DNA of 64,000 nt from the NCBI GenBank assembly GCA_012295275.1, contig CM022672.1, forward strand, positions 12,214,001-12,278,000, read 5' to 3'. This stretch comes from Chrysomallon squamiferum (lineage: Eukaryota; Animalia; Mollusca). The translations under genes were made by a program, and so were the position numbers. Shown one piece after another: positions 9,306-60,145 of the stretch. The notes below the pieces were generated by a model. That model worked only from the letters and a program-made list of their open reading frames with translations, ran no database searches and was not told the DNA's origin. Position 1 is the stretch's first letter. Every line of letters begins with the position of its first letter.

Positions 9306-9349
<44 letters not shown>

Positions 9350-9363
9350 CAGAAGAAGAAGAA

Positions 9364-9394
<31 letters not shown>

Positions 9395-15202: not shown

Positions 15203-15233
<31 letters not shown>

Positions 15234-18200
15234 TTACAGTCAATATGTCTAAGCATTGTTGTGTATTAAATTATTAATTTAAGGAAAGTATAACATTTTC
15301 AGACAATATTCCTAAAAGTGCTAAGTATTTAAATTACTAATTTAAAGAAAATGTTGATTTTTCCGGATAATATTTCATGTTTTACCAAGTATTTAAAATA
15401 TTAAATTAAAGAAAAAGATTACAATTTCAGACAGTGTTCCATGTTTTGCTGAGTTTGCTGAGAAGCTGGTGTCAGTGTGGAATCAGCAGATAGAGGAAAG
15501 AGGGGAGCCAGCAGTGGTGAAAGCACAGATATACATGACTGCCGTGGTAACCATTTATTTTAGTAGCTTCCTTGAAAATAAAATTCCATAAATAAACCCA
15601 AAGAAAAATATTTTTTTATTTAAAATAATAATTATGTAATAACTATAATTAAAAAAAACCCCAAGAAACAAACAAAACAACAACAACACAATTGAAAAAA
15701 AACGAAGAAAAAAAAACGAAACGAAGAAGGAAACCATACCCCTTAAAATAAAATAGCTACATTTATTATTAACAGTTGTTTAAAATGTAAATCATATACC
15801 CCTATCACTGGAACCATGTATTATTCAGTTTATTTGCACATAAATTAAACAGGCTATATATTTTTACTTAAATAATTTAGATATTTTTGTTTTTAGACTT
15901 TGGATGTGATTTGCATGTGTGGATTTGGTTACAGTATGAATGCGATAGAAAATCCAGAAAAGGCTGGGGTCTATGCTTTCAAGAGACTTCTGTTTGGGGA
16001 GCAGGTTAGGTGAGTATGCCCAAATGTTTCAAAAATGCCTTACCTTCCTTTCAAAAATTAAATATAAACCAAAATAATTATCTTTAGTTAATTGGAGTTA
16101 TCTTCCCTATTATTTGTTCAAAAATTATTGCAGCTGACCACTTAGAAAAATCTTTTTCATTTAGAGATGCACTACTTTTTAATAATGAGATCTTAATTCA
16201 GATAGATGTAAAAGTCTATATTTTGTATGCTATAATATACAGAGATGTGCTATTCATGACAACACAACTTAATCCATATACAAAATACAGACTGAGTAAT
16301 TATTGTAATTAAATTAAATTTAAAAACAAATAAGAAGAAAATGCCTAATAAATAGTTAGGGACCTGTATGATAATTTTTCTACTTTTCCATTTTGTTTTA
16401 GAAAACTGTTTGCTTTCTTTACAGACTTACTAATCTGATTCCATTCTTGAAATTAATTCCATCCAAGGAAAAAACACAAAGGAAAAAAGACATTGCACTT
16501 CTCAAGTGAGACTTTTGTTTTATTTGTATTTTAAATTGATTATTGTGAGAGTTGCATTTCACACTGGTATAAAATTTTAATCGTTTTACCTTGAATGTCA
16601 CAGTCTCTTACCTGCCTTAATGCAGAATAAGAATTGACATTAATGATTCTTTGAAGGTAAATCAAATCAATTTAATTTAGAAAATAATAGTAAACTAAAG
16701 ATATAAGGCATAATGTCTTTCCACTTGGATAGACTCAGTTATTAACATCATTAACAAGTTTGTTCTTGCCATAAACAAAACAAACACACACACACACACA
16801 CATACACACAGACAGACAGACACAGATACTACAGTTGTTTATGTAGGATATAAATAAGAAGAAATTTTCAAAACATTCTAAAATTACTGGGACAATTATT
16901 TCATCATATTTCTAAATTATTCTCTTTTATACACATTTTATTTCACAGCATTCAGCATTTGCTTGAATGAGTAGTTAATCTTTTTTCTGTATTCTCTTTT
17001 TCTCAGATCCATTGTAATGAATGTTCTTTCAGAACACAAACAGATGCTGAAGGATAATCCTGAAGCTTTGAGTAAGATATTTTAATCACACCTTGTACAA
17101 ATATAATCAAATCATTTGAAGAAATAAAGCTTTTGTTATACTTTTATATAAAAATAAATAAAACAAAAACTTTGTTGATTCAGTGAAATAGTCTATATTT
17201 ATTCTCTGAATATGTCCAAGTTAGGTTTTATTATTATTTTTCTGTTGTCCAGTTGTCCAGTCTTAATTAATAATACAAATAAATAGTCTAAATATATTCT
17301 ACATGAAAGAATGTATGTCCAAGTTATGATTTATTAATATCAAGTTTTCTAATAATGAAATATAAAAACAAAAGTTTAAAAATGTCTGGTTTCTGCATTA
17401 TTTCTCTTTTTATGACATGATTACATACTGATCAGAGCAATCTGCTGTAAAGTTTTTTCCAGTGTTGTAAGAAAAAGGATATCTACTAGTCTGCCATTTT
17501 TGTCTTTGACATGGCAAATCTAATTGTAAAATTTTACAATGGCAACATTCAGATTTTTCTTTTATTGTTATATTTTGTTATGACCATTATATTACACCAT
17601 TTATTCTTATCACCGACATGTATTTTAGTTTTTAATTTTTTCACTTTTTAAAAATTCTTCTTCTTTAGAAATGAAGAGCAACAGCAATCTTCTAACATCT
17701 CTTGTTTTGGCACATGATGAAAATGGCAATCCTTTGAATGATGAAGTCATTTTTTCTAATGTTGCTGGATTCATGTTTGCTGGGTTTGAGGTGAAAAATA
17801 ATTTTCTTTTGTTTTCTGGTCTTGAGTTTTAAAGCACATTGAAATCCCAGAGTGATACTGACCTAATTAAGGCACAATTTAATGCAGTACCCAGAGTTTC
17901 TTGATAGAATTTTCTGAAAGAATTCACAACTCTGCCTACTTCTAACTGAAAATAAAGTTTACTGAGCTTATTGACATTTAACAAACTAATTGTCTGCAAT
18001 ATATATTGAAAATATCAAAGGTATAACAGGTAAAATATTTTTAATATTTCATTTTTAGAACAGGACCTTAGTCAACTTGGTTTTTTTTAAAAAGTGAAAT
18101 GAATTCCATTACATATTACAGTATCTTTATTAATATTCACGATTCAAATAAAATTCATGATCTGTTAATCATCTAGGATATGTTTGATTTACCTTCTTTT

Positions 18201-20571
18201 ATTTTATGAGGTCAGTTTTTATACAGTAATGTAAATACTTTATTATCTTCAAAGACTGATGTTAAAAGTAATGAATAAAACAGTTAGTTGGAAAAATATT
18301 TAGCTTATTCTACCATAATAACATTCAAATATGTTACTAAGTTTACCAATAACAGCAAATATTGAAATTATAGGAGAAATAGACAAGCATTGTAGATGAT
18401 ACAATATATTGTAGAATTTCTTACAAATTCAGTGTATTGTGACTGATAAAGTTGTCTTTATAGCTATACAGGAAGTTATTGTTTGTGAAAGCTGTGGTGG
18501 TCACTAAAGGTACTAAAGATGTTATGAGGTTTTTATCAGATTTTCTTTGTTCAATTTATTCAGACAACCAGCCATTCACTGACGTGGACTCTGTTAAATT
18601 TGGCTCAGCATCCTGACTGTCAGGAGAAAGCCAGAAAGGAAGTGATGTCACAGATAACAAAAGGTCAGCCAATCACTGCAGAAGATTTGGAAAAGATGCC
18701 ATACACAGCCTGCTGCATCAAAGAATCTCTGAGGTAGAAACTGAACTTTAAACCAAAACACATTAATAACTAATATAGTAATTATAATTAATAATAATAA
18801 TAATAACAGAAGCAGCAATAGTGGTAGTAGTAGTTGTATTACTAATAACAGTAACGAAAGCAATATTTATAAATTATGCTTTCAACTTCGTATTATTGTA
18901 ATCATTATGATTTTGAGTAATATGTTTAGACATTTAGCCTTTTACATACAGAGTGACTACAAATTGTACATTTCCAGGAATTTGATCAAACAGTAAATTC
19001 ATATTTTAATTTATGAAAACTACAGTTCTTTGCAAGTTAATTAAAAATGGTGACTTTCTAGTTAAAGTTAATGTTTGCAGAGAATATTTGAAGGTAATAT
19101 TATCAATATGTTATAACTGGAAGTGGTACTATGCATGTATTATAAACAGAGATAATATTATCTATATATTATAAGCAAAGGTAATATTTGAGATATATTA
19201 TAAATAAAGATAATTTTTTATGGATTATATTATAAGCAAAGATAATATTTGAGATACATTATAAATAAAGATAATTTTATGGATTATATTATAAGCAAAG
19301 GTAATATTTGAGATATATTATAAATAAAGATAATTTTATGGATAATTTATACATCATGTTTTTGTTCATTTTAGACTGTTTCCACCTTTAACTGCGTACT
19401 GGAGAAAACCAATACATGATGATGTCATAAAAGGTTATTTTATTCCTAAAGGCACACCTATAGGGATTAGTGTTGGAGCTCTTCATAGGTGAGATAGATA
19501 AACTGTATATGAGACAGAAAAAGAACATTCTATGTAATATGTTTTTAGCTTATTTGAGACTTTGGAATTGGTGATTAAGTTGCAATAAAAACAGTCTAGC
19601 AAGTTCTGAAAAATATAGTTCATAATTTTTCAAATTTTAATTATTGGAATACTTGTATAACCTATTATGTCCCAAATGCTGTTTAATCTCTGATTTACTT
19701 ACTGCTAGACATACTCTCAGATTATGGTTGTTCTATTTCAAGAATATTTTATTTAATCAGACATTCACACTTGATCTATGTGTCCTTCATGCCACCATTT
19801 TAAACTGCATTTACACCAGCCACTGAAAAGTATATAAGTGGTTAGAATCATGCAATAAAAATTAAAGGACTATAAATTTTGATACATCTTAAACTGTTTC
19901 AGGTTAGCTTCAAAAATGTTTCTTTTTTTTTTTTTTCTTAATTTTTTTTTTTTTCTCATAGGTTAGCTTTAATAATAGCATCAAAATCATCAGTATTTAT
20001 TTGAAATAAAATTATTATGTATTTTTGAATAGGAACCATTAAAAAAACTGGAAACCCATTAATGGTTACCAGAGGTCATGTTAATAAACTTCTTCGTATA
20101 CTTGCAAATTGTTATTTTATTGTTTTGGTCCAGCCTATGATTGCAATCTCTTCACACATAGACTTTAAATAATCTAAGTGACACTAAAGCCAATTTTTAC
20201 TGATTCTGAAGATTTTACTCTTTCTTATTTTTTGCTTAAAATTCAAAATATTTCTGTCGAAGACCTTTGATTCTTTACTCTGTAATCAATTTTATTTGTA
20301 TTTCAGACTGCCTGAAAACTGGGATGACCCAGATTCATTCAAGCCTGAAAGATTCATGGAGCAAATCCCACATTACAAATACATACCTTTTGGCATTGGT
20401 CCATACATGTGTCTTGGGAATAGATTCTCAATGATGGAGTCCAGAACTATTCTTGCTGTTCTGCTGCAAAATTTTAGATTTGAGATGGTTCCTGGCTTCA
20501 CTTTCAAGAGGATTGCAACACCAGTAATGCAACCAAAACCACCTCTGATTCTTAGAGTTTCTAGAGTGTAA
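12772..20571 (+). CDS. Microsomal cytochrome P450, 508 aa, 12 coding exons (clan not firmly assigned; CYP4/CYP46/CYP3-like features)
   Basis: Exons 12772-12924, 13437-13516, 14192-14326, 15014-15126, 15431-15546, 15897-16009, 16425-16505, 17007-17071, 17669-17790, 18564-18733, 19375-19488, 20307-20571; all phases consistent, total 1527 nt. Motifs: N-terminal TM helix, IPGPP hinge, TLDVIC, I-helix FAGFE|TT, K-helix ESLR, PERF, heme loop FGIGPYMCLG. Confidence 0.95.
13930..14130 (-). mobile_element. 5'-truncated, degenerate RTE-type LINE 3' end in P450 intron 2
   Basis: The minus strand translates FEGKQSRQRPVREWSDD, resembling the GxRxRGRPxxxWxDD motif at the end of RTE-clade ORF2. It is followed by stops and ends in a (GAT)n tail ((CAT)n on +, 13932-13955). 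Confidence 0.5.
19138..19345. repeat. Minisatellite, about 60-bp unit made of two ~30-bp subunits, about 3.5 copies
   Basis: Recurring tattataagcaaaggtaatatttgagatatattataaataaagataattttatggatta in P450 intron 10. Confidence 0.85.
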
Positions 20572-22019: not shown

Positions 22020-22180
22020 TATTCTCGCACTAATTATAACTAGTGATAAGCGGAAGAACTACTTTCAACGTGGTCCAAAAATATTTGAACAACATAATAA
22101 TAATAATAATAAAAAAAATAAAATAATTAATTAACTATTTTGTAAAAAAGTGATTATAACTAATAAGAGACAAATAATAG
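22020..22180 (+). promoter_or_regulatory. Probable promoter and 5'UTR exon of the ARM-Tudor-Schlafen gene
   Basis: ETS-like GCGGAAG near 22050, local CpGs, and a strong donor ag|gtaagg at 22180/22181. Acceptor ttttag at 22740 precedes the ATG at 22756. Confidence 0.4.
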
Positions 22181-22755
22181 GTAAGGAATCATGTTCTGAT
22201 ACTAATTAAATGAAATTATTCTAACAACGAGCCCAGCATCTTAAAGCCAGAAAATCATCGAGTAAATTTTGTTACATTTAGTTTAATATGTTTTTTTTTT
22301 TTTCTTTTTAAAAATTAATAACAGTCCACGTGTTATAATTAAAAACAAAAATTTTGTTGGAGTATTATAACAAAAACGTTTTTTAATTTTCAATTTCGAT
22401 TTGACAAGATAAAACTGAAGGCTTGAACAAGAAGATGATGGAGCTAAAAGAATTAGGAAAATCAAAAAAATAATAATAATGTTCCCAATGAAAAAATTTC
22501 AAAACCAAATGAAAGAAAAACAAAACAAAACGGTTATGATGATAACAGATAATAAATAAATAAATAAACAGAAGCAACAATATTTAAAAAATTAAGTAAA
22601 AACGAAACAAAACTCCCACAAAACAAAAAAGAACAAAAAATACTCTATTACACAGACTACCTAGTTTATCATTATAAACCATATTTCAAATAAAACTTGA
22701 TACTGATATGCTTTTTATTACTTTATTACATTTGTTTTAGCAATTCTAGGAAGCC

Positions 22756-25700
22756 ATGTCAGAGTTGTTTTCATTCACCACATCTGAAAACAGTGTCCAG
22801 TGTTCCATCCTGAGATACTTACTGGACCTGCTTGCAGAGGATAGAAATCCCACTGTAAGATGTGCAACCATGTGTATCCTTGTGGACATCTTCAAAGCAG
22901 ATACTTCAGAGAAAAGCATCAAGAACTGTTTAGAATTGGGTTTAATAAGTGTCCTTAGAGAGGCCATCAGCTTACAGTTAAAGCTTGATAAATGTGATCT
23001 GATGACAATTATGCATCTGAAATGTGTTGTTAAGATTATCTGGCAGATTTCGCTGCTTCACAATGTGGTACTGAAGGAATGTTTTTCTTCTTCATTTCTG
23101 GAAGATTTGTGGGTTTGTCTTCAGTCAAATGGACCTTTTTTTGGGTACTCTTTGGCATTTTCTAACAAGCTGGAAGAAATTTGTAAAAAGAAATATATTG
23201 CTGGGAAATGTAAACCTTTGAAGATGACAGCTGCTATTTCAGAGGAATTGAAAAAGTATAACTTTTTCGAGAACTACCATGAACTTCCAAAGAGGTTGTA
23301 TGAATGCAAGCTCATTGATTCCAGTGAGGGCAAGGAAATGAATATTTCTGATTATTTGATTGAATTAAACTTAGCTTGGCCATCAGATGAAATGAGTGAA
23401 TTTGATTCTGAAACATCCAGAGACATTTTTATCACTGAAGTAATTGCAGGATGTTACTTCTGGGCCCAGGTTGGACAGGCAACAGTATCAAAAAGTCAGA
23501 AGATCAGTTCCATAATCAGTTCTTACAGATCAAATCTTCGTAAATCGTTGTGCAAAACAGGTGAACTTGTGGTAGTAGTGACCAATACAGATGGGCTTGA
23601 GGTTTGTTACAGAGCTAGAGTGATAAGTTATAATCATGGTCAAGTGAAGGTGTTTGCATTTGACTTTGGTTTCACAGGTTTTGTCCACGAGAACGATGTG
23701 TTCGCTTTGCCAGTTGTGGTGGGAATGCTGGAATTTCCAGTGCTAGCTTCTCTTTGTGTTCTATCAGGTAAATTAATCAAAGAATATTTAATTTAGAGTA
23801 GATCTGTTTTTCTTTTTATATTAATAAACTTAAATTTATTTAATTATTTATTCATTTATTTTTTATTTAATTTTATTTTTATTCTGTTTTATTTTGTTTT
23901 TAATTTTTTTTAGAGAATATATATAATTAGTTTATGTTACAAGATATATAACTGGTTAATGTCAACAACTAATTATAAAAAATTGTTTTTCTAGGTGTAA
24001 AACCCTCACCTGTTGACTCATATTTAGTATCAACTGTTGCTGCTGCAATCTGCAATTTAATCAGATTTAGCTATGCTAACTGTGGGTATTTTAAATAAAA
24101 TTATCTGAATTATATCATTAAAAAGCACGCTAATATTTAATACTCACAGATGACTAATATAAATTTAACACTAAAATATTAATTAATTTTATCTATCACA
24201 ATTAATTAGAATAGATAATAATTGATTTTTATTATAATACATTAATTAATGATAAAAGAAATTTATGTTAATTAATGAACATTACAGGTTATTCAAATTT
24301 ATTTAAATGTAATTAATAAAAATTAAGTGTAATTATTAATTATTGAAATTAAACTTAACTGTAATTATTAAACTTTGTAGGCCTAACACTGATAACTTTG
24401 GGAGCACCAGACAATATGTTGCCACTACTAAAATATCCCAATCCAACCATCATCATTCAGATTCTGAGAATTATCAACAACATTACTCGCAGTTCAGCAC
24501 ATAAGAAATCAATGTCCTTGAAAACTCTTGTTACTGTTCTGGGTAACGCTTCATTTTCACCTATCTATTCAGTTTGTATTGCATGTTGATCACAAACTGC
24601 TTAAAATGAGCTGTTGTATTCTAATATACAACACACTCACTTTAACCATGGCTTTATCCAGGATTTCAGAAAAGAGTATGTTTAGTCAGTGACAAATCAG
24701 GATGTCAGAAAAATGTTGGATTGGTGGTTAATTTTTTACTGTAGCAGATATTTTACAATTTATATATTGTTATTGGAATGTTTCATTTATGTTAAGTAGA
24801 AACCTGTACATGTGTTATGTTAACATTTACACCTAAAATCACAAATAATTAATTTTGTCCTGGCATAAATTAAATAATATATGAATCTTATTATCATTGC
24901 CTGTATAACAGAAACCTTTGTGATAATATGTAAAGGTTAATATTATTTACAAAACTTATTTACAAGTGCATATGTATCAAAGGAGACTACAGTTTAAAGT
25001 TATATCTTACAAATGTATTATTTTCAGTTACTTCTGCTTCTGAATCTGTCTTTATTCTGTTCTCAAAATGTTAATACAGATCTCTGCAAAACTGTTATCT
25101 CAGACGATAAATTGCCAAGCAAAATGAACTGTTGGATTGTTGAAGGTTGTCTTGCATGCATTGCTAATCTACTGAAGCTCAATTGTCAGTATAGAGATGA
25201 ATTCCAGAATAAACAAGGTTTGTCTTGCTAAGTAACTGCCGAAAAGTTTCAGTAATAGTTTTTCAGCAGTGGAATGTGGAGACTGCTTAGCTGTGATGAG
25301 CAGATGAGTTGATATACTTGAAAGTACCTAAATTTGGGACATATACAAAGTTTTCAATATATTTAACTAGATTAAGTCAAAATAGTGAGTTTCAACAATT
25401 CTGTAAAATGTTATTTTATAATTCTTTCTGTCTCTCTCATGAAAACCCCAGAAATGTGCAGTGTACAGATATTTTGCATATAGACTTTTTGTCTGCAGTG
25501 ATAATCTGAGTTCAGTGAAAAATAAGAAAATATGTTTGTTTGCAAATGCAGTCAGTCAGTTATTAATGTAGTCCATCATTTTTGCTATTGTTTTGAAAAT
25601 GTTAAGATTATGAATTCATTATTCAACAAAATATTTCAAGGTAGATCTTATATTTTATGAATATATTTTATTTATGATTATAATTTATACACATATGCAG

Positions 25701-28641
25701 TTTAGTTCTGTTGTTTTGAAGAATTAAAGAATATGAATTCATTATTTAAAAGAATCATTAAATATGGTTCTTGTTTTGTTTAACTATATTTTATTTCTGA
25801 TTATAATTTATTTACATACAAAGTTTGGTTCTTTTGTTTCAAAAAATTAAAAATGATAAATTAATGCTTAACACAATCATTCAAGATATAGCTCTGTTGT
25901 TTTGCTATCTTATTTTTGCATCCTTTTTTTTTTTTTTTTCATGTAATTTAGTTTAAAAAAAAAAAAATTATTTTCTATTTTTTTAAATTCATTTTTATTA
26001 CAGATGTTTTTTCTTACAGGTTTGGATATTGTGCTAAAAGCTGTCAGTCAAACTGATCGTTTTTCTAAGATTTACAAACTGTCTGTTCAGGTACTGCGAA
26101 ACTTTGTGTCAACAGCAGGTGTTCATATTTCACTTCAAGACACTGCAGTTACCGATAGATATTCACTACATACTGGGTAATATTAGTTATATTATAAACT
26201 TAATATATATTTTTTTTAATAGTTATCTCATAAAAAAATTAACAAGCTTGTTAGAGATAGGGTTAGTGATTGGTATGTTGATTATGAGTGATTGGAGAAA
26301 GAGCCTAGAGTAGATGTATATTTTATAATGGAACCCTATGTAAAATGGATATTGGTGTGAGATGTTTGTGAGATACAGAGAGATATTTAACAACTGTTAG
26401 TATTAAAATATGTAGAGTTGTCATTAAATTAATTTTCATTCAGTTTGTTATTAAAATGAATTGAGTTTTTAATAAACTAATATTCATCAGCTCATCAAGC
26501 CTTTGGAGTTTAGTGGGAAGTTCTTGATTTTAATTACACTGTAAATTGAGATATACATATTTATTTTATAAATATACTGAACATTTCCACAACATACATT
26601 TTATACATTAAAAAATCTTAGTATATTTCCGTCAGGTCAAATGGAATTCCGTCATGATACAACATCTTTCTACATACTAATTACTGTACTAGTTCAAGCA
26701 CAAACTAATTTGGTTTTCTTTTCTTTTTCCCAGGGAAACAATGAATGATGCCACAAGAAGTAATACTGCTATTTCAGTCAGTTTATGTTTTCGTATATAA
26801 TATAATTTTAAATGTTTTTTTTTCATTTTTTTTTCAATAAAATATAAAAATTTGAAGAAACAGTGATTTTTATTGTGATATTAATTAAATCAGATAATGT
26901 TATATTTCTGATTTTTTTTATATATCTCTAATATTATATATATTAATATAAAGATGAATACAAAGGGAGTATTTTGAAGTTCCATGTTACTTAATAGTTA
27001 CTTTTATCAGTTACATATGTTCTTTGTAATATTGTTGTTGTTTTTTTTGTTTTTTTAAATATATGTTACAAACTGTTTTAATAACTAATGCAGCCTGTTG
27101 CTTATGGATATGAAGATCATGATGATGGCGGTGATATTGTTGATGATGATGATGTTGATGATGAAATAAGTGGTAAAGACTGCAGGGTTGCAGATACATT
27201 AGGTAATGTTATTTCTGTTGACAATGTAATTTAAAATGAACACGGATTCTTATTGGTTATTTTCTACAATCATTTCCTGTGAACATAATCAAATGTAGAG
27301 GCATGTACAAACACATAAAAATATATACCTACACAAAGGCATATACAGCCACACAAAAATGTACACACACACAGACAGTCATATACACAAAGACATAAAT
27401 ACAATCATACCTACATATAAATTGCATTCAGAAGATTATATTAATTTTTGATTATTTTTAAATCAGTATCAGTAAATACTACCAAAAATTAGTTCTGAAA
27501 ACTTTAATATAACTTTCTAACAACAAGTGTTTTCTTAACACATGCACACACATACACACATATTTAAAAAAAAAAATGTTGACCTATAACAACAAATACT
27601 TTTGTAAGAAATAGCATTAGTCAGTAATAACACTATAGAAAAAGCTTTTGTTCACTTTTTAAAATTGTTATTTTGACTGTTTACCATGTTGTTCCACATG
27701 CATTGAAAACCGATATTTAAAACCGAGTTAATTTGATAGTGTTCAATACCAGTAATATGATTGGCAATCTTTTGCATACTTACATATCCTTGTGGGTTTT
27801 TTGGTAATAATGACAATTTAAAGATCCAGTTGAATTAAAGTCACTGATGCATTGTAATATTGTGTCAGAGAAGTTGTTGAGAGTATGTTTTTTTTTTTTT
27901 CAAATATGATTGGTGGCAACTTGGTGGAATTTGAAAAATTTGTAGTGCTGTGACTGTTACAGTGGCCTGTGTGGACAGGTGATCATTCTGAATAGAAGGA
28001 AATGCTATGGGGGGTGGTGGTGGTTGTATTTGTGGTGGCTGTTATTGGCGGGTGAGAATTCTGAACAGGTTTTGACTTTCATGTGTTTTGTACATACACA
28101 CGCACACACAAATACACATGCACTGGCAGCAAATGTGGATTGATAATAAGGTATCATGGTGTGTTTCATGTTTTGCAGATGTCACTTCTTCATCCATTGT
28201 GCCAGTGAATATATCCAGTCTGTGTGAAGCGCCTGCAGCTTATTATGAATATGGTAACATTTTATTAATTCTTAATTAATGTCAATAATTAACAATTTAT
28301 GAAAATTTATGTAAATTTTTAATATTTTTCCTAATCTTTTATTTTTTTATTTTTTATTTAATTTTTTTTTTAAATTATAGTATATATTAATATTAAATAA
28401 AAAAAACAATAATAATAAACAAATTAATAAATAAATAAATAAAAAATATTTGTTTCAGAAACTGAGGTGCTGTTTTCTGATGATGCTACTCACGAGCTTC
28501 GACCCAATCGTCACCTGTCAGAAATCACAGCTGATTCTGTCCTTAAGATTGTCTGTTCAATGCTGAACAGTGGTAAATTCTCTTTAATACCAAGCAGTTA
28601 TTTCAGTGTTTTATTAAAAGTAATTCTGCTTTGTAGAAAAT

Positions 28642-28676
<35 letters not shown>

Positions 28677-30478
28677 GTATGTATTTATTTCTTGAAGATA
28701 CATAAAGCATTTTAAATATAAATGTAAATCTTAAAAACTGATGGAAACATGTGAATACCACAGGAAATTAATTTAAGTTATAACAGTGCTTAGTAATGTT
28801 TTTATTTTTCTTTGCAATTTATATTTTCATTTACAATGCTTTATGCATCTTTGAAAATTTCTTAACATTAAATCACAATATTTGTTCTGTAAAATTAATT
28901 ATTAAAAAACTAACTAAAAAAAACAACTATAAGCCTTGTCATTATCCAATCAAATTAATAGGCTAAGTGATTAATGGTTAACACTATTTTCATCTATTTT
29001 AGAATATTTATTTGAAAAAAAATGTCTGACTAAAAACTCTTTAACATTTAGTACAGATCTTTACCCTATTAACGTTTAAAAAAAACCCCATTTATTTGGA
29101 CAGGACGAAACTGTACAATCTACTTTGGCGTTGGTAAGGATCAGAAGGTGTATGGCATGCTGCTTACCAGGGAAAACCGAGATGAGTTTCGACTTGGCGT
29201 TGACAGATTGATGACCAGATTGACTCCTCCAGTTCTGTACTTCCAGTATGAACTGGTTTATGTCCCTGTGGTGAAGATCACTGGTGAGGAGAAGTCAAGA
29301 CGTATCACCCCCATAGAAAATTTATTTATTGCAGGTAAGTAAAGATGTTTCTTTTAATATTTTTAATATTTTTTTTATTAAACAGGATTGTAAGAAATTG
29401 ATTGATGCTTGATTCATTTGAAAATTGGTAAAAAAAGAAAAAAAAAAGAAGGAATTTTAGATATTTTTAAAAAGAGTTATGAAAAAAGAAAGAATTGTAA
29501 TAAACTGGATAGATGTTTTAACAGTAAATGTATAACCGATTTCAGTAGATTTTAATTTAATACAAAATTAATGACGGAGAATGTTCTGATGGCTTAAATA
29601 TGTTCTGTTAATAAATTACTTTATAAAGTGTTCTTTATTCACAAAGAGGTGAATATAAACTGTGTAATTTTGTATTTCAAGCATCATAAGTAAAAGTTAA
29701 ATATTACAAAACAGAAAAATAAAATTTGTTTATTATAATCACTTTAGTAATCACTGATAAATTTCTTTTTACTTTGAATATAAAACATAATAAATCAAAA
29801 TTCCTGAAGATAGAAATATACACATACCTTTTCCTATCCATACATTTTTTGTATCTAAAAAACCCCCAAAATTTAAAATTGTATGCATATTTTTATTTTC
29901 CAAATTACAGAAATTCGACTGAATTCAAGTTCCTCCACACTGTATGCTATAGCCTCGACAGAGCAGTGTTTCTACAGGTTTGGCTCAGACACTTCACTTT
30001 TGTCCTGTCAGGTAATTAATTCATTAAACATCATACCAAAATTACTGTTAAATAATTTATTTTATTTATTTCAGACAATTGCTCTTACACCAGTATATTT
30101 AAATTAAAGAATTAAAATGTTATTTTGGTTTATTTCACACTGTTATGATTATTATACTATGTTAATTTCAAAGGATGATGACAAAAAAAAAAAAAAAAAA
30201 ACAAATAAAAACAAACAAATCTGACATACTCAAAAGTATACAAACTTCTGTTCTTTTTTTTTTTCTTTTTTTTAATGTTTCGAGTTCCTACCATAAGAGC
30301 TTCACATTAGTATTTAATTTAAAATTTGGTGATAAAGATTAAATATTTATTTCTCTTCATCTAACATCAAAGAAGTTTTTGTTTCACACAGGAGGTAAGA
30401 CATCTGGCTGTTTTTGCAATGGAGGAAATATACAAAGAAGAAATCCTGGCTTTGAGAAAAGAGTTGTCTTCCCTGTAG
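22756..30478 (+). CDS. Uncharacterised 771-aa protein: ARM/HEAT-like repeats + extended Tudor + ARM-like repeats + acidic linker + Schlafen (AlbA_2, SLFNL1-like) domain + C-terminal coiled coil
   Basis: Exons 22756-23767, 23995-24081, 24381-24542, 25080-25217, 26020-26176, 26734-26776, 27094-27202, 28179-28253, 28459-28572, 29104-29334, 29911-30011, 30392-30478 (TAG); phases all consistent, total 2316 nt. Tudor: IFITEV..FWAQV..GELVVV..CYRARVI..VKVFAFDFGF..VFALP..FPVLASLCVLSGVKP. Schlafen: FSDDATHELR..IVCSMLNSGRNCTIYFGVGKDQKVYGM..RDEFRLGVDRLM..LTPPV..YELVYVPV..FIAEIRL..LY..CFYRFG. Confidence 0.88.
23419..24006 (+). other. Extended Tudor (TDRD-type) domain coding segment, spanning intron 23768-23994
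   Basis: Matches the TDRD eTudor pattern VxIT.V..FW.Q ... G.LV ... YRA.V ... V.F.DFG ... LP ... P.LA..C.L.GV.P. Confidence 0.8.
25585..25905. repeat. Degenerate intronic tandem repeat, period about 123 bp
   Basis: tatgaattcattatt at about 25609 and 25732; tatattttattt..gattataatttat and gttctgttgttttg also recur. Confidence 0.6.
27960..28077 (+). mobile_element. Possible eroded 3' end of a Tc1/mariner-pogo type MITE
   Basis: GC-richer block with gacaggtgatc / ggtggctgttatt subrepeats ending in acaggttttgact, resembling the CAGTCAAACCTGT-type TIR end of invertebrate TcMar MITEs (from memory). No matching 5' TIR found. Confidence 0.3.
28241..30478 (+). other. Schlafen/AlbA_2 domain plus terminal coiled coil coding segment (5 exons)
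   Basis: Collinear with the recalled SLFNL1 pattern [69 protein letters not shown]..coiled coil. Confidence 0.85.
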
Positions 30479-31091
30479 AGGAAATCTTTAGATATATTTT
30501 GGAGGAATAAAAAGATTTTAGCTCAGACATTTATTTCGATATATTTTTCAGACACTTGAAGTTCTTTTTCAAACTGTCTGATAGTCACAAAACTGAAATA
30601 ACAGAATTGACCATTTTTGAAGAAATTAAAAAGAAACTGTTTGTTAATTATTTTAAATAATTTTTTTAGTGTTTTAATGGTTTTTGTTCAGTATTTTAAT
30701 TTTTTTTAATGGTTTGTTGAGACTCATGATAAATCTGAAGTTTTGTGTCTTTCTGAAGAGATTTGTCTCCTCCAACTGATTTTTAATAACTGTTTTTTAA
30801 AAATTTTCCATTTTTATGTTTTTCACATCGAGAATTGAATATTATCTAAAATATTCATACATCTATCAAATACTTCACTGTCAAAAACACGTTTTATGTT
30901 TATTTTGTAATGTTATTTAGAATTATTACTTCCAGTTTGAATTCTGATAAAAAAAAATTATGAAAATCATATAGCTTGTAAACTTGGATTCGTATTCATT
31001 AAAAAAAATATCCATTTCAGGTCTCTTCTACTGACTGTCACTGCAAAGTGTTTTTTTGTTTTTTCATTTCATTTGCTTCATTTTCATATAC

Positions 31092-31560
31092 TTTGCAGTG
31101 GAGGAAATATACAAAGAAGAAATCCTGGCTTTGAGAAAAGAGTTGTCTTCCTTGTAGAGAAAATCTTCGTATATAAATTTTGGAGGAGTAAAAAGATTTT
31201 TCTTCAGTGATTTATTTCTATATATTTTGTAGAGATTTGAAGTTTTTTTTCAAACTCTGTGATGTTCACACACCTAAAATCACAGAAGTGACAATCTTTG
31301 AAGATATCAAAAAGAAGTTGTTAATTATTTTAAATAGTTTTTCTTTCATGTTTTAATAGTTTATGTTCAATATTTTAAATACTTTTTCTTTAATGTTTTA
31401 ATAGTTGTTGTACAATATTTAAATTGTTTTTAATGGTTCGTTGAGATTGAAGATAATTCTGAAGTTTTGTGTCTTTCTGAAGAGATTTGTCTCCTTCAAG
31501 AATTATATAGTTTGTAAACTTGGATTTGTATTCCTTTTTTATATATCTTGTTTCTCTTCT
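31092..31560 (+). repeat. Diverged tandem duplicate of the 3' part of the last exon and 3'UTR of the ARM-Tudor-Schlafen gene
   Basis: tttgca(a/g)tggaggaaatatacaaagaagaaatcctggctttgagaaaagagttgtcttcc occurs at about 30413 and 31092. Downstream UTR blocks are also repeated: ctgaagttttgtgtctttctgaagagatttgtctcc and ttgtaaacttggatt. Confidence 0.9.
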
Positions 31561-32195: not shown

Positions 32196-32272
32196 CATCA
32201 TTATTATTATAAACCAGATCACAATTCTGTTCGCTCTTCCCATTTCATTTGCATAAATTAACATAAATTAAC

Positions 32273-33049
32273 CTGTCTAAAAAGAACAAGCGGAAGTTCC
32301 GGTGACGTATATACAATGATGCTTGCGTCAATAAAACTGGATCCAGCCTGATAATGGTATGTCACAGCCTTCCAATCACCAATTCCTTTCAACTTCAGCG
32401 TACCGTTGTTTGAGGAAAATGTTTGCCCATCTGCACGGAAGAAAGAAGGGCCGCTGTTCAACCATGTGACATCATTTACCAGAATGCTGTACGATCCATC
32501 CTGGTTTATATTTACCTTCATGTCTCCGTTACCAGACGACAAAGACTAACTGAGAGCTAAAATTAGTTTTAAAAACAAAGACATTCTCCGCAAATCAATT
32601 TTAGTTTCAAGTGTTACTGATGTATATAGTGCCTAGAGTGTTGAGACTTATTCTTCTTGTATTATTACTCCCCCTCACCATTACACACTTGATAGTTCAG
32701 TTTAAAATGATAGTTTTCATATAAAAATAAGCATTAACAATTTATGTTCTAGTTCCTTTGAGTATAATGTCATAAATGCATTTGTTGTTGTTCTTGTTAG
32801 GTGTGATTTGGGTGTTTTATTTTTTCTTGTTTTGTGTGTGTATGCATGTGCACGAATTATTTTCTTAGTGGGTGTGAATAAAAATCCAGTAAAAATAATT
32901 CTTCTTATTATTATTTTTATTATCATAATGAAAGATATGGGTAATGTATCTTTAAAAAAAACAAAAAAACCCCACTAAATATGAAACAGTTACTCACCTA
33001 CAACACAGGTTAGTAATACATTTAATTGACATATTAAAATATTTGCCAT
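32273..33049 (-). pseudogene. Orphan 5' fragment of a secreted, beta-rich (possibly glycoside-hydrolase-associated) invertebrate protein gene with an in-frame stop
   Basis: Exon 33049-32998 (MANILICQLNVLLTCVV, donor gtgagt) spliced to 32556, or an alternative ATG at 32584 (MSLFLKLILALS), read in the same frame into TAG (32548-32546). The frame continues SLSSGNGDMKVNINQDGSYSILVNDVTWLNSGPSFFRADGQTFSS...PLVLFRQ to a donor at 32273. No further exons recognised downstream. Confidence 0.6.
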
Positions 33050-34140: not shown

Positions 34141-37100
34141 TTTTTTGTGCACGTATTGGAAACGAGCTGTTCCCCATGGGTGGGGCGTGCGGCACTTTTC
34201 ACCCGTGTAGGGCAACCCTTGCCCCACTTTTGGGTATGTGCGCCCGATTTTTCCCACGTGCACAGAAAAAGTTATTGCACTTTGAAAAAGGTACCCCTAG
34301 CATTTTCAACGAAACTTGAAAAAATTCGATTTTCAAAAGTTGAAAATCCGTGTGGCACTATTCCGTGCGGTCGGGAAAAATATTTCAACGTGTGCAAAGG
34401 TGCGCGCCGTCGGGGCGAGTGTGGCAAAATCGTTTCCAACATTTTCCAAAGGTGCTGCACCTTTAGAAAATGCGTTTGAAAAAAAAAACGCAAAAATTTT
34501 CAAAAATATGTGCGTTTTTTGTGCACGTGTCGGAAACGAGTTGTTCCCCTTGGGTGGGGCGTGCGGCACTTTTCACCCGTGTAGGGCAACCCTTGCCCCA
34601 CTTTTGGGTATGTGCGCCCGATTTTTCCCACGTGCACAGAAAAAGTTATTGCACTTTGAAAAAGGTACCCCTAGCATTTTCAACGAAACTTGAAAAAATT
34701 CGATTTTCAAAAGTTGAAAATCCGTGTGGCACTATTCCGTGCGGTCGGGAAAAATATTTCAACGTGTGCAAAAGGTGCGCGCCGTCGGGGCGAGTGTGGC
34801 AAAATCGTTTCCAACATTTTCCAAAGGTGCTGCACCTTTAGAAAATGCGTTTGAAAAAAAAACGAGCAAATTTTCAAAAATATGTGCGTTTTTTGTGCAC
34901 GTGTCGGAAACGAGTTGTTCCCCTTGGGTGGGGCGTGCGGCACTTTTCACCCGTGTAGGGCAACCCTTGCCCCACTTTTGGGTATGTGCGCCCGATTTTT
35001 CCCACGTGCACAGAAAAAGTTATTGCACTTTGAAAAAGGTACCCCTAGCATTTTCAACGAAACTTGAAAAAATTCGATTTTCAAAGTTGAAAATCCGTGT
35101 GGCACTATTCCGTGCGGTCGGGAAAAATATTTCAACGTGTGCAAAAGGTGCGCGCCGTCGGGGCGAGTGTGGCAAAATCGTTTCCAACATTTTCCAAAGG
35201 TGCTGCACCTTTAAAATGCGTTTGAAAAAAAAACGAGCAAATTTTCAAAAATATGTGCGTTTTTTGTGCACGTGTCGGAAACGAGTTGTTCCCCTTGGGT
35301 GGGGCGTGCGGCACTTTTCACCCGTGTAGGGCAACCCTTGCCCCACTTTTGGGTATGTGCGCCCGATTTTTCCCACGTGCACAGAAAAAGTTATTGCACT
35401 TTGAAAAAGGTACCCCTAGCATTTTCAACGAAACTTGAAAAAATTCGATTTTCAAAAGTTGAAAATCCGTGTGGCACTATTCCGTGCGGTCGGGAAAAAT
35501 ATTTCAACGTGTGCAAAAGGTGCGCGCCGTCGGGGCGAGTGTGGCAAAATCGTTTCCAACATTTTCCAAAGGTGCTGCACCTTTAGAAAATGCGTTTGAA
35601 AAAAAAACGAGCAAATTTTCAAAAATATGTGCGTTTTTTGTGCACGTGTCGGAAACGAGTTGTTCCCCTTGGGTGGGGCGTGCGGCACTTTTCACCCGTG
35701 TAGGGCAACCCTTGCCCCCACTTTTTTTGGGTATGTGCGCCCGATTTTTCCCGTGCACAGAAAAAAAAGTTATTGCACTTTGAAAAAGGTACCCCTAGCA
35801 TTTTCAACGAAACTTGAAAAAATTCGATTTTCAAAAGTTGAAAATCCGTGTGGCACTATTCCGTGCGGTCGGGAAAAATATTTCAACGTGTGCAAAAGGT
35901 GCGCGCCGTCGGGGCGAGTGTGGCAAAATCGTTTCCAACATTTTCCAAAGGTGCTGCACCTTTAGAAAATGCGTTTGAAAAAAAAACGAGCAAATTTTCA
36001 AAAATATGTGCGTTTTTTGTGCACGTGTCGGAAACGAGTTGTTCCCCTTGGGTGGGGCGTGCGGCACTTTTCACCCGTGTAGGGCAACCCTTGCCCCACT
36101 TTTGGGTATGTGCGCCCGATTTTTCCCACGTGCACAGAAAAAGTTATTGCACTTTGAAAAAGGTACCCCTAGCATTTTCAACGAAACTTGAAAAAAATTC
36201 GATTTTCAAAAGTTGAAAATCCGTGTGGCACTATTCCGTGCGGTCGGGAAAAATATTTCAACGTGTGCAAAAGGTGCGCGCCGTCGGGGCGAGTGTGGCA
36301 AAATCGTTTCCAACATTTTCCAAAGGTGCTGCACCTTTAGAAAATGCGTTTGAAAAAAAAAGCAAATTTTCAAAAATATGTGCGTTTTTTGTGCACGTGT
36401 CGGAAACGAGTTGTTGTTCCCCTTAGGTGGGGGGCGTGCGGCACTTTTCACCCGTGTAGGGCAACCCTTGCCCCACTTTTGGGTATGTGCGCCCGATTTT
36501 TCCCACGTGCACAGAAAAAGTTATTGCACTTTGAAAAAGGTACCCCTAGCATTTTCAACGAAACTTGAAAAAATTCGATTTTCAAAAGTTGAAAATCCGT
36601 GTGGCACTATTCCGTGCGGTCGGGAAAAATATTTCAACGTGTGCAAAAGGTGCGCGCCGTCGGGGCGAGTGTGGCAAAATCGTTTCCAACATTTTCCAAA
36701 GGTGCTGCACCTTTAGAAAATGCGTTTGAAAAAAAAAACAAATTTTTCAAAATATGTGCGTTTTTGTGCGTGCTCGGAAACGAGTTGTTCCCCTTGGGTG
36801 GGGCGTGCGGCACTTTTCACCCGTGTAGGGCAACCCTTGCCCCACTTTTGGGTATGTGCGCCCGATTTTTCCCACGTGCACAGAAAAAGTTATTGCACTT
36901 TGAAAAAGGTACCCCTAGCATTTTCAACGAAACTTGAAAAAATTCGATTTTCAAAAGTTGAAAATCCGTGTGGCACTATTCCGTGCGGTCGGGAAAAATA
37001 TTTCAACGTGTGCAAAAGGTGCGCGCCGTCGGGGCGAGTGTGGCAAAATCGTTTCCAACATTTTCCAAAGGTGCTGCACCTTTAGAAAATGCGTTTGAAA

Positions 37101-40100
37101 AAAAAACGAGCAAATTTTCAAAAATATGTGCGTTTTTTGTGCACGTGTCGGAAACGAGTTGTTCCCCTTGGGTGGGGCGTGCGGCACTTTTCACCCGTGT
37201 AGGGCAACCCTTGCCCCACTTTTGGGTATGTGCGCCCGATTTTCCCACGTGCACAGAAAAAGTTATTGCACTTTGAAAAAGGTACCCCTAGCATTTTCAA
37301 CGAAACTTGAAAAAATTCGATTTTCAAAAGTTGAAAATCCGTGTGGCACTATTCCGTGCGGTCGGGAAAAATATTTCAACGTGTGCAAAAGGTGCGCGCC
37401 GTCGGGGCGAGTGTGGCAAAATCGTTTCCAACATTTTCCAAAGGTGCTGCACCTCTTTTAGAAAATGCGTTTGAAAAAAAAACGAGCAAATTTTCAAAAA
37501 TATGTGCGTTTTTTGTGCACGTGTCGGAAACGAGTTGTTCCCCTTGGGTGGGGCGTGCGGCACTTTTCACCCGTGTAGGGCAACCCTTGCCCCACTTTTG
37601 GGTATGTGCGCCCGATTTTTCCCACGTGCACAGAAAAAGTTATTGCACTTTGAAAAAGGTACCCCTAGCATTTTCAACGAAACTTGAAAAAATTCGATTT
37701 TCAAAAGTTGAAAATCCGTGTGGCACTATTCCGTGCGGTCGGGAAAAATATTTCAACGTGTGCAAAAGGTGCGCGCCGTCGGGGCGAGTGTGGCAAAATC
37801 GTTTCCAACATTTTCCAAAGGTGCTGCACCTTTAGAAAATGCGTTTGAAAAAAAAACGAGCAAATTTTCAAAATATGTGCGTTTTTTGTGCACGTGTCGG
37901 AAACGAGTTGTTCCCCTTAGGTCGGGGGGCGTGCGGCACTTTTCACCCGTGTAGGGCAACCCTTGCCCCACTTTTGGGTATGTGCGCCCGATTTTTCCCA
38001 CGTGCACAGAAAAAGTTATTGCACTTTGAAAAAGGTACCCCTAGCATTTTCAACGAAACTTGAAAAAATTCGATTTTCAAAAGTTGAAAATCCGTGTGGC
38101 ACTATTCCGTGCGGTCGGGAAAAATATTTCAACGTGTGCAAAAGGTGCGCGCCGTCGGGGCGAGTGTGGCAAAATCGTTTCCAACATTTTCCAAAGGTGC
38201 TGCACCTTTAGAAAATGCGTTTGAAAAAAAAAACGAGCAAATTTTCAAAATATGTGCGTTTTTTGTGCACGTGTCGGAAACGAGTTGTTCCCCTTGGGTG
38301 GGGCGTGCGGCACTTTTCACCCGTGTAGGGCAACCCTTGCCCCACTTTTGGGTATGTGCGCCCGATTTTTCCCACGTGCACAGAAAAAGTTATTGCACTT
38401 TGAAAAAGGTACCCCTAGCATTTTCAACGAAACTTGAAAAAATTCGATTTTCAAAAGTTGAAAATCCGTGTGGCACTATTCCGTGCGGTCGGGAAAAATA
38501 TTTCAACGTGTGCAAAAGTGCGCGCCGTCGGGGCGAGTGTGGCAAAATCGTTTCCAACATTTTCCAAAGGTGCTGCACCTTTAGAAAATGCGTTTGAAAA
38601 AAAAAACGAAAATTTTCAAAATATGTGCGTTTTTGTGCGTAATCGGAAACGAGTTGTTCCCCTTGGGTGGGGCGTGCGGCACTTTTCACCCGTGTAGGGC
38701 AACCCTTGCCCCACTTTTGGGTATGTGCGCCCGATTTTTCCCACGTGCACAGAAAAAGTTATTGCACTTTGAAAAAGGTACCCCTAGCATTTTCAACGAA
38801 ACTTGAAAAAATTCGATTTTCAAAAGTTGAAAATCCGTGTGGCACTATTCCGTGCGGTCGGGAAAAATATTTCAACGTGTGCAAAAGGTGCGCCCGTCGG
38901 GGCGAAAATCGTTTCCAACATTTTCCAAAGTGGCAAAATCGTTTCCAACATTTTCCAAAGGTGCTGCACCTTTAGAAAATGCGTTTGAAAAAAAAACGAG
39001 CAAATTTTCAAAAATATGTGCGTTTTTTGTGCACGTGTCGGAAACGAGTTGTTCCCCTTGGGTGGGGCGTGCGGCACTTTTCACCCGTGTGGGCAACCCG
39101 TTTGCCCCGAACAAATTTTTTTGGGTATGTGCGCCCGATTTTTCCCACGTGCACAGAAAAGTTATTGCACTTTGAAAAAAAAGGTACCCCTAGCATTTTC
39201 AACGAAACTTGAAAAAATTCGATTTTCAAAAGTTGAAAATCCGTGTGGCAATATTCCGTGCGGTCGGGAAAAATATTTCAACGTGTGCAAAAGGTGCGCG
39301 CCGTCGGGGCGAGTGTGGCAAAATCGTTTCCAACATTTTCAAAGGTGCTGCACCTTTAGAAAATGCGTTTGAAAAAAAAAACGAGCAAATTTTCAAAAAT
39401 ATGTGCGTTTTTTGTGCACGTGTCGGAAACGAGTTGTTCCCCTTGGGTGGGGCGTGCGGCACTTTTCACCCGTGTAGGGCAACCCTTGCCCCACTTTTGG
39501 GTATGTGCGCCCGATTTTTCCCACGTGCACAGAAAAAGTTATTGCACTTTGAAAAAGGTACCCCTAGCATTTTCAACGAAACTTGAAAAAATTCGATTTT
39601 CAAAAGTTGAAAATCCGTGTGGCACTATTCCGTGCGGTCGGGAAAAATATTTCAACGTGTGCAAAAGGTGCGCGCCGTCGGGGCGAGTGTGGCAAAATCG
39701 TTTCCAACATTTTCCAAAGGTGCTGCACCTTTAGAAAATGCGTTTGAAAAAAAAAACGAGCAAATTTTCAAAAATATGTGCGTTTTTTGTGCACGTGTCG
39801 GAAACGAGTTGTTCCCCTTATTTTTCCCACGTGCACAGAAAAAGTTATTGCACTTTGAAAAAGGTACCCCTTGGTTGGGGCGTGCGGGGCGGGGCGTGCG
39901 GCACTTTTTCGGGGCGTGCGGCACTTTTCACCCGTGTGGGGCAACCCTTGCCCTTTTGGGTATGTGCGCCCGATTTTTCCACGTGCACAGAAAAAAAGTT
40001 ATTGCACTTTGAAAAAGGTACCCCTAGCATTTTCAACGAAACTTGAAAAAATTCGATTTTCAAAAGTTGAAAATCCGTGTGGCACTATTCCGTGCGGTCG

Positions 40101-60101: not shown

Positions 60102-60145
<44 letters not shown>

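Follow-up and report, generated by a model that had tools for sequence, protein, structure and literature searches.

ARM-Tudor-Schlafen proteins, a conserved animal family with a predicted member in Chrysomallon squamiferum

What could be the function of a protein carrying ARM repeats, an extended Tudor domain and a Schlafen fold on one and the same polypeptide chain, and is such a chain a genuine gene product? The question is raised by a predicted gene located at 22756..30478 of the window, i.e., the whole analysed stretch of 64,000 nucleotides from the mollusc Chrysomallon squamiferum, which an initial annotation had considered as a candidate factor for piRNA-like RNA processing. In the accessible parts of the literature, C. 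elegans is the only animal known to process piRNAs with Schlafen folds, and the question of whether such processing is ancient is raised there.

The predicted gene and the range of its family

The whole predicted gene, delineated from its open reading frame, its splice signals and its homology to P0001, a 788-aa protein of Gigantopelta aegis, lies on the + strand, like all features described below, and comprises 12 coding exons, located at 22756-23767, 23995-24081, 24381-24542 and 25080-25217 (exons 1-4), 26020-26176, 26734-26776, 27094-27202 and 28179-28253 (exons 5-8), and 28459-28572, 29104-29334, 29911-30011 and 30392-30478 (exons 9-12). Joined together, the exons give 2,316 nt encoding 771 aa and a stop codon, devoid of any internal stop; all of the 11 introns are of the GT-AG type, with a GC content of 0.235 versus 0.395 for the exons. 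The predicted protein aligns end to end with P0001 with 47% identity, so that the frame-consistent 771-aa reading frame over 12 exons, proposed initially, holds as a predicted model. A tblastn search with P0001 matched 10 of the 12 exons; the two others, exons 6 and 7, encode part of an acidic linker and are placed by splice signals and frame alone. Open reading frame fragments from other assemblies break at the positions of introns in the 12-exon model: among the 17 fragments that extend across the Tudor core, 7 stop within 4 aa of the end of exon 1, and 5 out of 52 begin and stop at the limits of exon 10. Four RNA runs from one study contained a fraction of 0.20-0.34 of the words sampled in 22700-30600, close to the exon share (0.29), a measure of word content that carries no evidence on junctions. 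Word-indexed protein searches, an insensitive method, returned 1, 3 and 5 matches.

Since the junctions are predicted and exons 6 and 7 are devoid of homology support, the model might have fused a Tudor gene with a neighbouring Schlafen gene. Such an artefact is hardly credible, however, because P0001 is a single protein homologous over the whole length, Tudor and Schlafen parts occur together in 40 proteins, and full-length relatives sit on intron-free contigs. The latter are scarcely longer than the coding sequence, e.g., 789 aa on 2,499-2,841 nt, 867 aa on 3,132 nt, 810 aa on 2,677-2,855 nt and 842 aa on 2,872-2,964 nt, and therefore probably correspond to one spliced mRNA.

The Chrysomallon protein belongs to a conserved family of animal ARM-Tudor-Schlafen proteins, labelled as uncharacterised in databases, which extends from corals to amphioxus. 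A survey of the architecture across animal proteins, suggested in the initial annotation, retrieved the combined Tudor and Schlafen parts in 40 of 91 related proteins shorter than 1,300 aa, 24 of which possess all five parts. The members with a taxon name belong to molluscs, an annelid, amphioxus, hemichordates, ticks, insects and a coral. The Tudor core is absent from a sponge relative and from rows P0035 and P0088, and may thus be dispensable. The tree broadly matches animal phylogeny, with a support of 100 each for molluscs, hemichordates, insects and ticks; a clade of 11 rows, including both named tick proteins, may represent an expansion. Vertebrates, flies and nematodes did not appear among the 23 clusters looked up (17 with a taxon name; best 150 of 1,293 matches). 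Drosophila Squash was considered as a derived family member and dropped, this protein being disordered and fly-specific according to the accessible part of PMC13523842. Neither the ARM-Tudor-Schlafen architecture nor any of six member gene identifiers was found described in the literature, subscription papers and supplements aside, which agrees with the earlier statement that the architecture has no known characterised counterpart. Because databases already give both Pfam labels for some members, what is new is the family itself, together with its structure and probable function, rather than the detection of the domains.

A predicted insertion of an extended Tudor domain into an ARM solenoid

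The initial annotation proposed ARM-like repeats followed by an extended Tudor domain, a Schlafen domain and a coiled-coil tail. The fusion of the domains is borne out by Pfam, by P0001 and by the 40 proteins, whereas the order has to be corrected, since the Tudor domain is predicted to sit inside the ARM solenoid: the chain consists of a first ARM half, the extended Tudor domain, a second ARM half, an acidic linker, the Schlafen fold and an amphipathic helix. The profile and structure matches expected initially were found for all three domains (TUDOR, E 4e-9; AlbA_2, 27.6 bits in P0001; ARM, Z 23.4). That first account lacked three features: the predicted placement of the Tudor domain within a single ARM solenoid, the apparent circular permutation of this domain, and the distribution of the family among animals. 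All structural statements refer to the model of the Gigantopelta homolog P0001, folded from a set of 58 sequences (a fold from three sequences reached a pLDDT of 44.7), and not to the Chrysomallon protein.

Exon 1 (aa 1-337; 22756..23767), delimited by Pfam and by the end common to the 7 fragments from elsewhere, encodes the first ARM half together with almost the entire inserted extended Tudor domain. The first half of the solenoid (aa about 11-122; 22786..23121) corresponds to helices 8-119 of the homolog model and superposes continuously on ARM proteins with the second half (aa 348-497, exons 2-5; 24024..26111), in which N400 and N450 are conserved. According to the model, six tandem three-helix repeats build up a single ARM solenoid that is interrupted by the extended Tudor domain, residues 13-497 of P0001 aligning with 239 residues of a 242-residue ARM protein with a rmsd of 2.5, and Pfam Arm is recognized in 13 of the 58 members. 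The top match of the wide structure search is CNOT9 (258 of 270 residues aligned, with Z 23.7 and a rmsd of 2.8), although these wide lists are filled by ARM matches and provide no information on the Tudor and Schlafen parts. This match and the conservation of N400 and N450 could suggest a general adaptor of mRNA decay or of RNPs, acting outside the small-RNA pathways, in which the six-repeat ARM solenoid would bind peptides like CNOT9 and the Schlafen fold would only bind RNA. However, importin-alpha and designed ARM proteins score equally well (Z 23.4-25.0), and CNOT9 shares 12% identity, so that the match reveals the fold only, and an adaptor of this type appears quite improbable.

Within the inserted domain, the N-terminal half of the SN fold and the Tudor core (aa 222-337; 23419..23766) were located from the Pfam TUDOR match at 222-336 in exon 1 (37 bits for a cut-off of 23), the alignment to a canonical profile and the residue counts of the cage. 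TUDOR is recognized in 38 of the 58 members at E<=0.01. In the model, the core barrel superposes on those of TDRD2, Papi and Tudor with a rmsd of 2.1-3.2 over 116-131 columns and is of the TDRD type; among solved structures, it best matches TDRKH/Papi, Tudor-SN and fly Tudor, and the remaining matches of the family search, among those listed (best 150 of 1,293), are long tandem-Tudor proteins. The C-terminal half of the SN fold, which follows the Tudor core in TDRD-type domains, does not follow it in the family: hhalign locates it upstream (aa about 131-206; 23146..23373) with a probability of 88.5% (E 2.7e-6), compared to 0.3% downstream, and it occurs upstream in all 12 rows, out of 56, that have both halves above the thresholds. 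In a reciprocal search, this half matches downstream of the Tudor cores of tandem-Tudor proteins. Single family sequences showed no gain with a permuted over a normal-order canonical profile, 16 of 45 scoring higher and 25 lower, with a median of -0.2 bits. The extended Tudor domain is thus apparently circularly permuted, as judged from profiles and the model, and no description of such a natural permutation, nested in an ARM solenoid, was found in the literature.

Residues T276, Y285, A301, F304 and F306 occupy the cage positions of the Chrysomallon protein, instead of four aromatic residues and an Asn. The aromatic residue located two positions before the conserved Asp occurs in none of 56 family rows, compared to 243 of 250 canonical windows, the cage Asn in 3/56 versus 230/250, and the first cage position, for which the loop alignment is less sure, in 1/56 versus 230/250. 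From these aligned sequences, the methyl-arginine cage is lost across the family. The recruitment of PIWI through symmetric dimethyl-arginine, as claimed initially, is consequently not supported: a Tudor domain that reads this mark on PIWI tails and brings in the nuclease is very unlikely, in spite of its core of the TDRD type and of the F or Y that replaces the Asn in 26 of the 56 rows and could make a different pocket.

The Schlafen fold and its conserved charges

The second ARM half is followed by a predicted disordered acidic linker (aa about 498-588, exons 5-8; 26112..28234), recognized from its composition, with 4 K/R for 20 D/E in aa 500-590, and from the homolog model, in which most residues of 501-604 have a pLDDT below 50. 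The Schlafen/AlbA_2 fold (aa about 590-741, exons 8-11; 28238..30005) comes next and is the most conserved part of the family, with a mean top-residue share of 0.45 versus 0.30-0.38 in the ARM and Tudor parts, and contains the majority of the conserved polar residues. SLFN_AlbA_2 exceeds its cut-off of 25.3 bits in P0001, gives E 0.046 for exon 10 of Chrysomallon alone, and is recognized in 46 of the 58 members at E<=0.01. Foldseek retrieved SLFN13, 5, 12 and 11 at E 3e-5 to 1e-4, with a rmsd of about 9. The homolog model contains one AlbA_2 fold (605-756), as in PUCH subunits, and not the two-lobed SLFN core in one chain. In the Atlas, the domain neighbours mollusc AlbA_2 clusters (scores 0.94 and 0.93), SLFNL1-like clusters appearing only at low TM; an Atlas feature search with the whole protein gave no usable match. 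Profile searches of the 58 members found no SPRY of the TOFU-2 type and no SAM, NTPase, OB or RRM domain, with a weak SIR2 match in one row, so that neither the SAMD9/9L architecture (SAM, AlbA_2, SIR2, P-loop NTPase, TPR, OB) nor that of SLFNL1 (RRM and a single AlbA_2) occurs among them. The chain terminates with an amphipathic helix (exons 11-12; 30006..30478, including the stop codon), which corresponds to helix 758-787 of the homolog model and displays heptad-like hydrophobic positions 757, 761, 764, 768 and 771. No C-terminal membrane helix of the SLFL-3/4 type was found, the five top hydropathy windows all beginning at aa 315-321.

The motif D602-D603-x-x-H606-E607-x-R609 (28479..28502) was identified by alignment to the pig SLFN11 chain 7fex and by family counts. 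D602, E607 and R609 align with the E-x4-E-x-K of SLFN11, three positions essential in this enzyme according to the accessible part of PMC9482658, their equivalence to E209/E214/K216 in human numbering being deduced from the spacing in pig SLFN11 and from the same source. The trio is kept in 5 of 57 family domains, the Chrysomallon protein among them, where it would fit an active enzyme more than a pseudo-enzyme.

Two readings make the Schlafen fold an enzyme by itself. According to the first one, the protein would be a stress or innate-immune endonuclease directed against tRNA or rRNA, like SAMD9 or SLFN11, in which the ARM-Tudor head senses a signal and the Schlafen domains are released to dimerise and shut down translation. 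SAMD9 (E 1.9e-6) and SLFN11 (E 1.2e-5) are the best sequence matches of the domain among solved structures, ahead of SLFN14 and SLFN5, AlbA_2 domains are broadly linked to defence in the available part of PMC12680541, the Chrysomallon protein has D/E/R at the essential positions, and the 11-row clade with the tick proteins may be an expansion. This reading is nevertheless doubtful, the trio being complete in only 5/57 domains, NTPase, helicase and other STAND sensor families being absent from the 58 members, and the tree, in which a minority of the rows carry a taxon name, looking vertical and low-copy. According to the second one, a rebuilt site made of D603, H606, E607, D659, D666 and arginines would replace E-E-K, and a homodimer would cut a specific RNA in the absence of another SLFN partner. 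The conservation of D603 (51/57), H606 (41/57), an acidic residue at 607 (46/57) and R732 (55/57), and that of D659 (55/57) and D666 (54/57), which lie with R662 (55/57) in the family-conserved charged helix R655-x-x-R658-D659-x-x-R662-x-G-x-D666 (29169..29204), is consistent with such a site. These charges may instead form a partner or RNA surface, however, and position 607 is H or A in 10/57; a rebuilt active site is improbable.

Proposed role and comparison with known systems

The preferred reading, to which we assign a probability of roughly 40%, is a docking subunit similar to TOFU-1 and TOFU-6, in which the single Schlafen fold would mediate oligomerisation on a particle of the germ granules or of the PIWI pathway. 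The ARM solenoid with its cage-less extended Tudor domain would dock the protein on this particle, the SN surface or the ARM groove presumably binding peptides independently of methylation, and the association of the Schlafen fold with others of its kind would allow RNA to be bound and cut. Oligomerisation is suggested because one SLFN fold equals half of the mammalian SLFN core, PUCH needs three of them, and the amphipathic helix C-terminal to the domain is conserved. Most members would be non-catalytic or regulatory subunits like TOFU-1, the Chrysomallon protein possibly being still catalytic; its D602/E607/R609 trio would count against the docking role. The context would be that of small RNAs or piRNAs; domains of the Tudor-SN type also act outside the piRNA pathway.

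In C. elegans, the extended Tudor domain of TOFU-6 binds the SLFN protein TOFU-1, itself devoid of catalytic residues, by its SN surface and away from the cage (PMC10567574); that of BmVreteno also binds its partner away from the cage, according to the accessible part of PMC10711660. Two mutually binding worm parts are thus fused here in one chain. The likeness to PUCH put forward initially is therefore retained as an analogy, based on the single SLFN fold per chain and on the combination of an extended Tudor and a SLFN domain, partners in worms (PMC10567574) and fused here; the only sequence signal towards TOFU-6 is a weak match (E 0.013).

A broader and unlikely interpretation considers the family as an ancestral animal module for piRNA processing, in which the functions divided between TOFU-6 and PUCH in C. 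elegans reside on one chain. The module would have arisen when a circularly permuted Tudor unit, excised from a tandem Tudor array, became inserted into an ARM solenoid, and would have persisted from cnidarians to amphioxus. If so, most animal phyla would possess a Zucchini-independent endonuclease for the ends of piRNAs or other small RNAs, overlooked since the usual model organisms have lost or rebuilt the module. The fusion being kept in molluscs, annelids, arthropods, deuterostome invertebrates and a cnidarian, the candidate could be tested in experimentally accessible systems, e.g., limpet, locust, amphioxus or tick cells.

With respect to known systems, the family resembles PUCH (TOFU-1, TOFU-2, SLFL-3/4) and the PETISCO subunit TOFU-6 by a single SLFN fold per chain, a cage-independent extended Tudor domain and the existence of catalytically dead subunits (PMC10567574), but the separate binding partners of worms are fused here on an ARM solenoid, and both the C-terminal membrane helix and SPRY are lacking. 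It shares a Tudor core within a SN fold with the TDRD-type proteins TDRKH/Papi, Tudor, Tudor-SN and Vreteno, from which it differs by the SN C-half that precedes the core, the loss of the aromatic cage and Asn, the insertion of the module in ARM repeats and its fusion to a Schlafen fold. Vertebrate SLFNL1, itself functionally uncharacterised according to the available part of 10.1101/2024.01.12.575368, and mollusc single-AlbA_2 proteins also possess one C-terminal SLFN fold, whereas the family adds an ARM-Tudor head and its 58 members are devoid of the RRM of SLFNL1. Finally, SAMD9/9L and SLFN11/13/14 have in common with the family the AlbA_2 fold and an alignable E-x4-E-x-K region, in contrast to their second SLFN lobe, helicase, SAM, SIR2-like, NTPase and OB parts, which are missing here, and to their catalytic set, which is not family-wide.

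Gene model and genomic surroundings

The predicted gene, located at window positions 22756-30478 of the forward strand, consists of 12 exons in AT-rich animal DNA. The joined exons (2,316 nt) encode 771 residues followed by a stop, with no internal stop codon; all 11 introns are of the GT-AG type and the GC content is 0.235 in introns versus 0.395 in exons. The single open frame uniting ARM, Tudor and Schlafen regions, as proposed in the initial annotation, is borne out by this uninterrupted frame and by the end-to-end alignment (47% identity) with a 788-aa protein from Gigantopelta aegis (LOC121383655, hereafter P0001), which starts at model residue 4 and is the single match to exon 1 in the protein search. 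In tblastn, P0001 covers 10 of the 12 exons, and exons 6 and 7, located outside this coverage, are based on splice signals and frame. ORF fragments from other assemblies are interrupted at the exon limits of this model: among the 17 that span the Tudor core, 7 stop at the exon 1 boundary, and both ends of exon 10 are matched by 5 of 52. Several relatives occur full length on contigs scarcely exceeding their own coding sequence, which implies that they are encoded by a single spliced mRNA. An artefact of gene modelling is extremely improbable.

An acceptor-like AG preceding the ATG points to a probable further exon upstream, which may add codons. A strong donor-like site (22179-22185, forward strand), about 560 bp 5' of this acceptor, is a candidate end for a 5' exon. 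Intron 4 contains a direct repeat (25585-25904; period of about 120 bp, 75% identity), and the segment 30413-30775, which spans the 3' part of the last exon plus the 3' flank, recurs at 31092-31499 as a degenerate tandem copy (77% identity) that is preceded by an AG and devoid of the start of that exon.

Elsewhere in the window, the forward strand carries BRCA2 exons (about 1466-10358; BRCA-2_helical E 7e-16, OB1 E 3e-5) and a cytochrome P450 gene (about 15000-20571; last exon E 4.5e-21) ending some 2.2 kb 5' of the predicted gene. A 95-codon exon-like frame on the reverse strand (32261-32545; GC 0.42, no Pfam match) probably belongs to another gene. Further on come a satellite (34141-41294) of about 19 copies of a 374-bp unit, 95-97% identical, with a GC content of about 0.45 versus about 0.27 around it, and a PARP14-like gene on the reverse strand (about 47279-63104) with RRM, KH, Macro, WWE and PARP matches.

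Distribution of the family among animals

Among 1.84 billion representatives, a three-sequence profile matched 1,293, and the best 150 of these matches were listed. Family counts rest on 91 proteins shorter than 1,300 aa that match a family domain profile among the matches listed, leaving out 63 long proteins of the tandem-Tudor type as well as four near-copies of one relative, P0003. On this basis, the architecture extends well beyond this gene, as the initial annotation had suggested searching for: Tudor and Schlafen domains coexist in 40/91 proteins, and all five parts in 24/91. Mollusc members come from Gigantopelta, Patella, Babylonia, Sinanodonta, Argopecten, Solemya, Mercenaria and the chiton Liolophura, and other relatives from Owenia (annelid), Branchiostoma, Saccoglossus, Ptychodera, Ornithodoros, Rhipicephalus, Schistocerca, Ischnura, Acropora and the sponge Sycon, whose protein possesses a Schlafen domain and a weak ARM match and lacks the Tudor core. 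Names are carried by 17 of the 23 clusters looked up, and the labels of named members read uncharacterised, hypothetical, or a domain name only.

In a tree of 35 rows, groups are obtained for molluscs, for bivalves, for insects, for ticks and for hemichordates, with weak deeper branches and five long branches; P0001 is the sister of the window protein (support 100), a placement indicating a gastropod. An 11-row clade (99/99), comprising P0058, P0101 and nine other rows and including both named tick proteins, exhibits a shorter C-terminal helix and may represent a tick expansion. In P0035 (Ptychodera), P0088 and P0068 (Sycon), the Tudor core alone is missing from the alignment and the flanking SN elements are kept; these are possibly isoforms or lineages dropping the Tudor barrel. 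The ARM-Tudor-Schlafen proteins form a real and ancient animal family, apparently as yet unstudied, with an unusual nested structure.

A predicted ARM solenoid with an inserted, apparently permuted Tudor module

The AlphaFold2 model was built on the homologue P0001 rather than on the window protein, with 58 sequences (mean pLDDT 85.6, pTM 0.68). Over residues 7-497, the model can be superposed on known ARM proteins as a single unbroken solenoid spanning about 240-260 residues (e.g., 239/242 residues, rmsd 2.5, Z 23.4; 235/238 residues, rmsd 2.0, Z 24.0), in agreement with the ARM fold expected beforehand. Since this superposition is continuous despite a Tudor module (residues ~120-344) lying between both ARM halves, the prediction is that the module forms an insertion within a single ARM domain. 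The remainder of the chain consists of an acidic linker predicted to be disordered, one AlbA_2 fold and, finally, an amphipathic helix whose hydrophobic positions show heptad-like spacing. A general RNP adaptor seems a rather unlikely reading of the protein, the structural match to CNOT9 being tied with those to other ARM proteins.

Judging from profile alignments, the extended Tudor module appears circularly permuted. The SN half normally located after the Tudor core aligns upstream of it, at residues 131-206 (hhalign 88.5%, E 2.7e-6), versus 0.3% and no match for the region downstream. This C-half lies upstream in all 12 rows, among 56, that pass the thresholds for both halves. Reciprocally, the upstream segment of the family matches 22 places in 15 of the 63 tandem-Tudor proteins, all situated 3-46 residues past a Tudor core. 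Held-out canonical domains all gain from the C-half in normal order (50/50, median 21.5 bits), and family sequences show zero gain. Speaking against a permutation, the permuted profile is not better than the normal one on family sequences, scoring higher for 16 and lower for 25 of 45 scored; the family segment carries an insertion of about 23 residues, which may account for this shortfall. A simple route to such a module would be its excision from a tandem Tudor array.

The cage is degenerate in the window protein (T276, Y285, A301, F304, F306). In 56 hand-picked family rows compared with 250 canonical windows drawn from 460, an aromatic residue two positions before the conserved Asp occurs in 0/56 versus 243/250, and the cage Asn in 3/56 versus 230/250; two further positions, set by the pattern used to select the canonical windows, were left out. 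Canonical reading of methyl-arginine by this Tudor domain is accordingly very improbable.

The Schlafen domain and the proposed function

The Schlafen domain is the most conserved part of the family. According to PMC9482658, E209, E214 and K216 of SLFN11 are essential and D252 is dispensable. When the family profile is aligned with pig SLFN11, D602, E607 and R609 occupy the essential places (human numbering inferred from spacing). The window protein keeps all three in conservative form and is one of the 5 among 57 domains to do so (matches under 120 aa and four near-copies left out); across the 57, the positions are acidic in 14/57, acidic in 46/57 and basic in 23/57, respectively. The residues conserved family-wide are instead D603, H606, N631, R658, D659, R662, D666 and R732; an active enzyme with a rebuilt catalytic site is an unlikely reading.

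The best-supported reading, to which we assign a probability of about 0.4, is that the protein serves as a subunit for docking and oligomerisation within a Schlafen-fold RNA-processing complex of germ granules; everything in it past the anatomy is what we infer. As described in PMC10567574, PUCH, the piRNA-precursor nuclease of C. elegans, requires three SLFN folds, one fold being half of the mammalian core; TOFU-1 is catalytically dead, and the eTudor in TOFU-6, a subunit of PETISCO, contacts TOFU-1 through its SN surface, away from the cage. Vreteno provides a second example of cage-independent binding (PMC10711660). The family thus unites in one chain two parts which, in worms, are mutual binding partners. 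The mechanism put forward in the initial annotation is partly supported, in its likeness to PUCH (an eTudor with a single SLFN fold), and its methyl-arginine recruitment is not supported, the cage being degenerate.

In full-text literature searches, neither the architecture nor a permuted extended Tudor nor any of six member gene ids was described; the family could already appear in supplementary domain tables or subscription papers. An immune or stress tRNA nuclease, somewhat doubtful as a reading, draws on the best sequence matches, SAMD9 and SLFN11. SAMD9 has an unlike domain architecture, as has SLFNL1, and SLFN11-type proteins differ from the family, which has one SLFN lobe. Canonical TDRD readers differ in both the cage and the order of the SN halves. 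For the docking and oligomerisation subunit, PUCH with TOFU-6 would be the closest working likeness, as an analogy which does not imply orthology.
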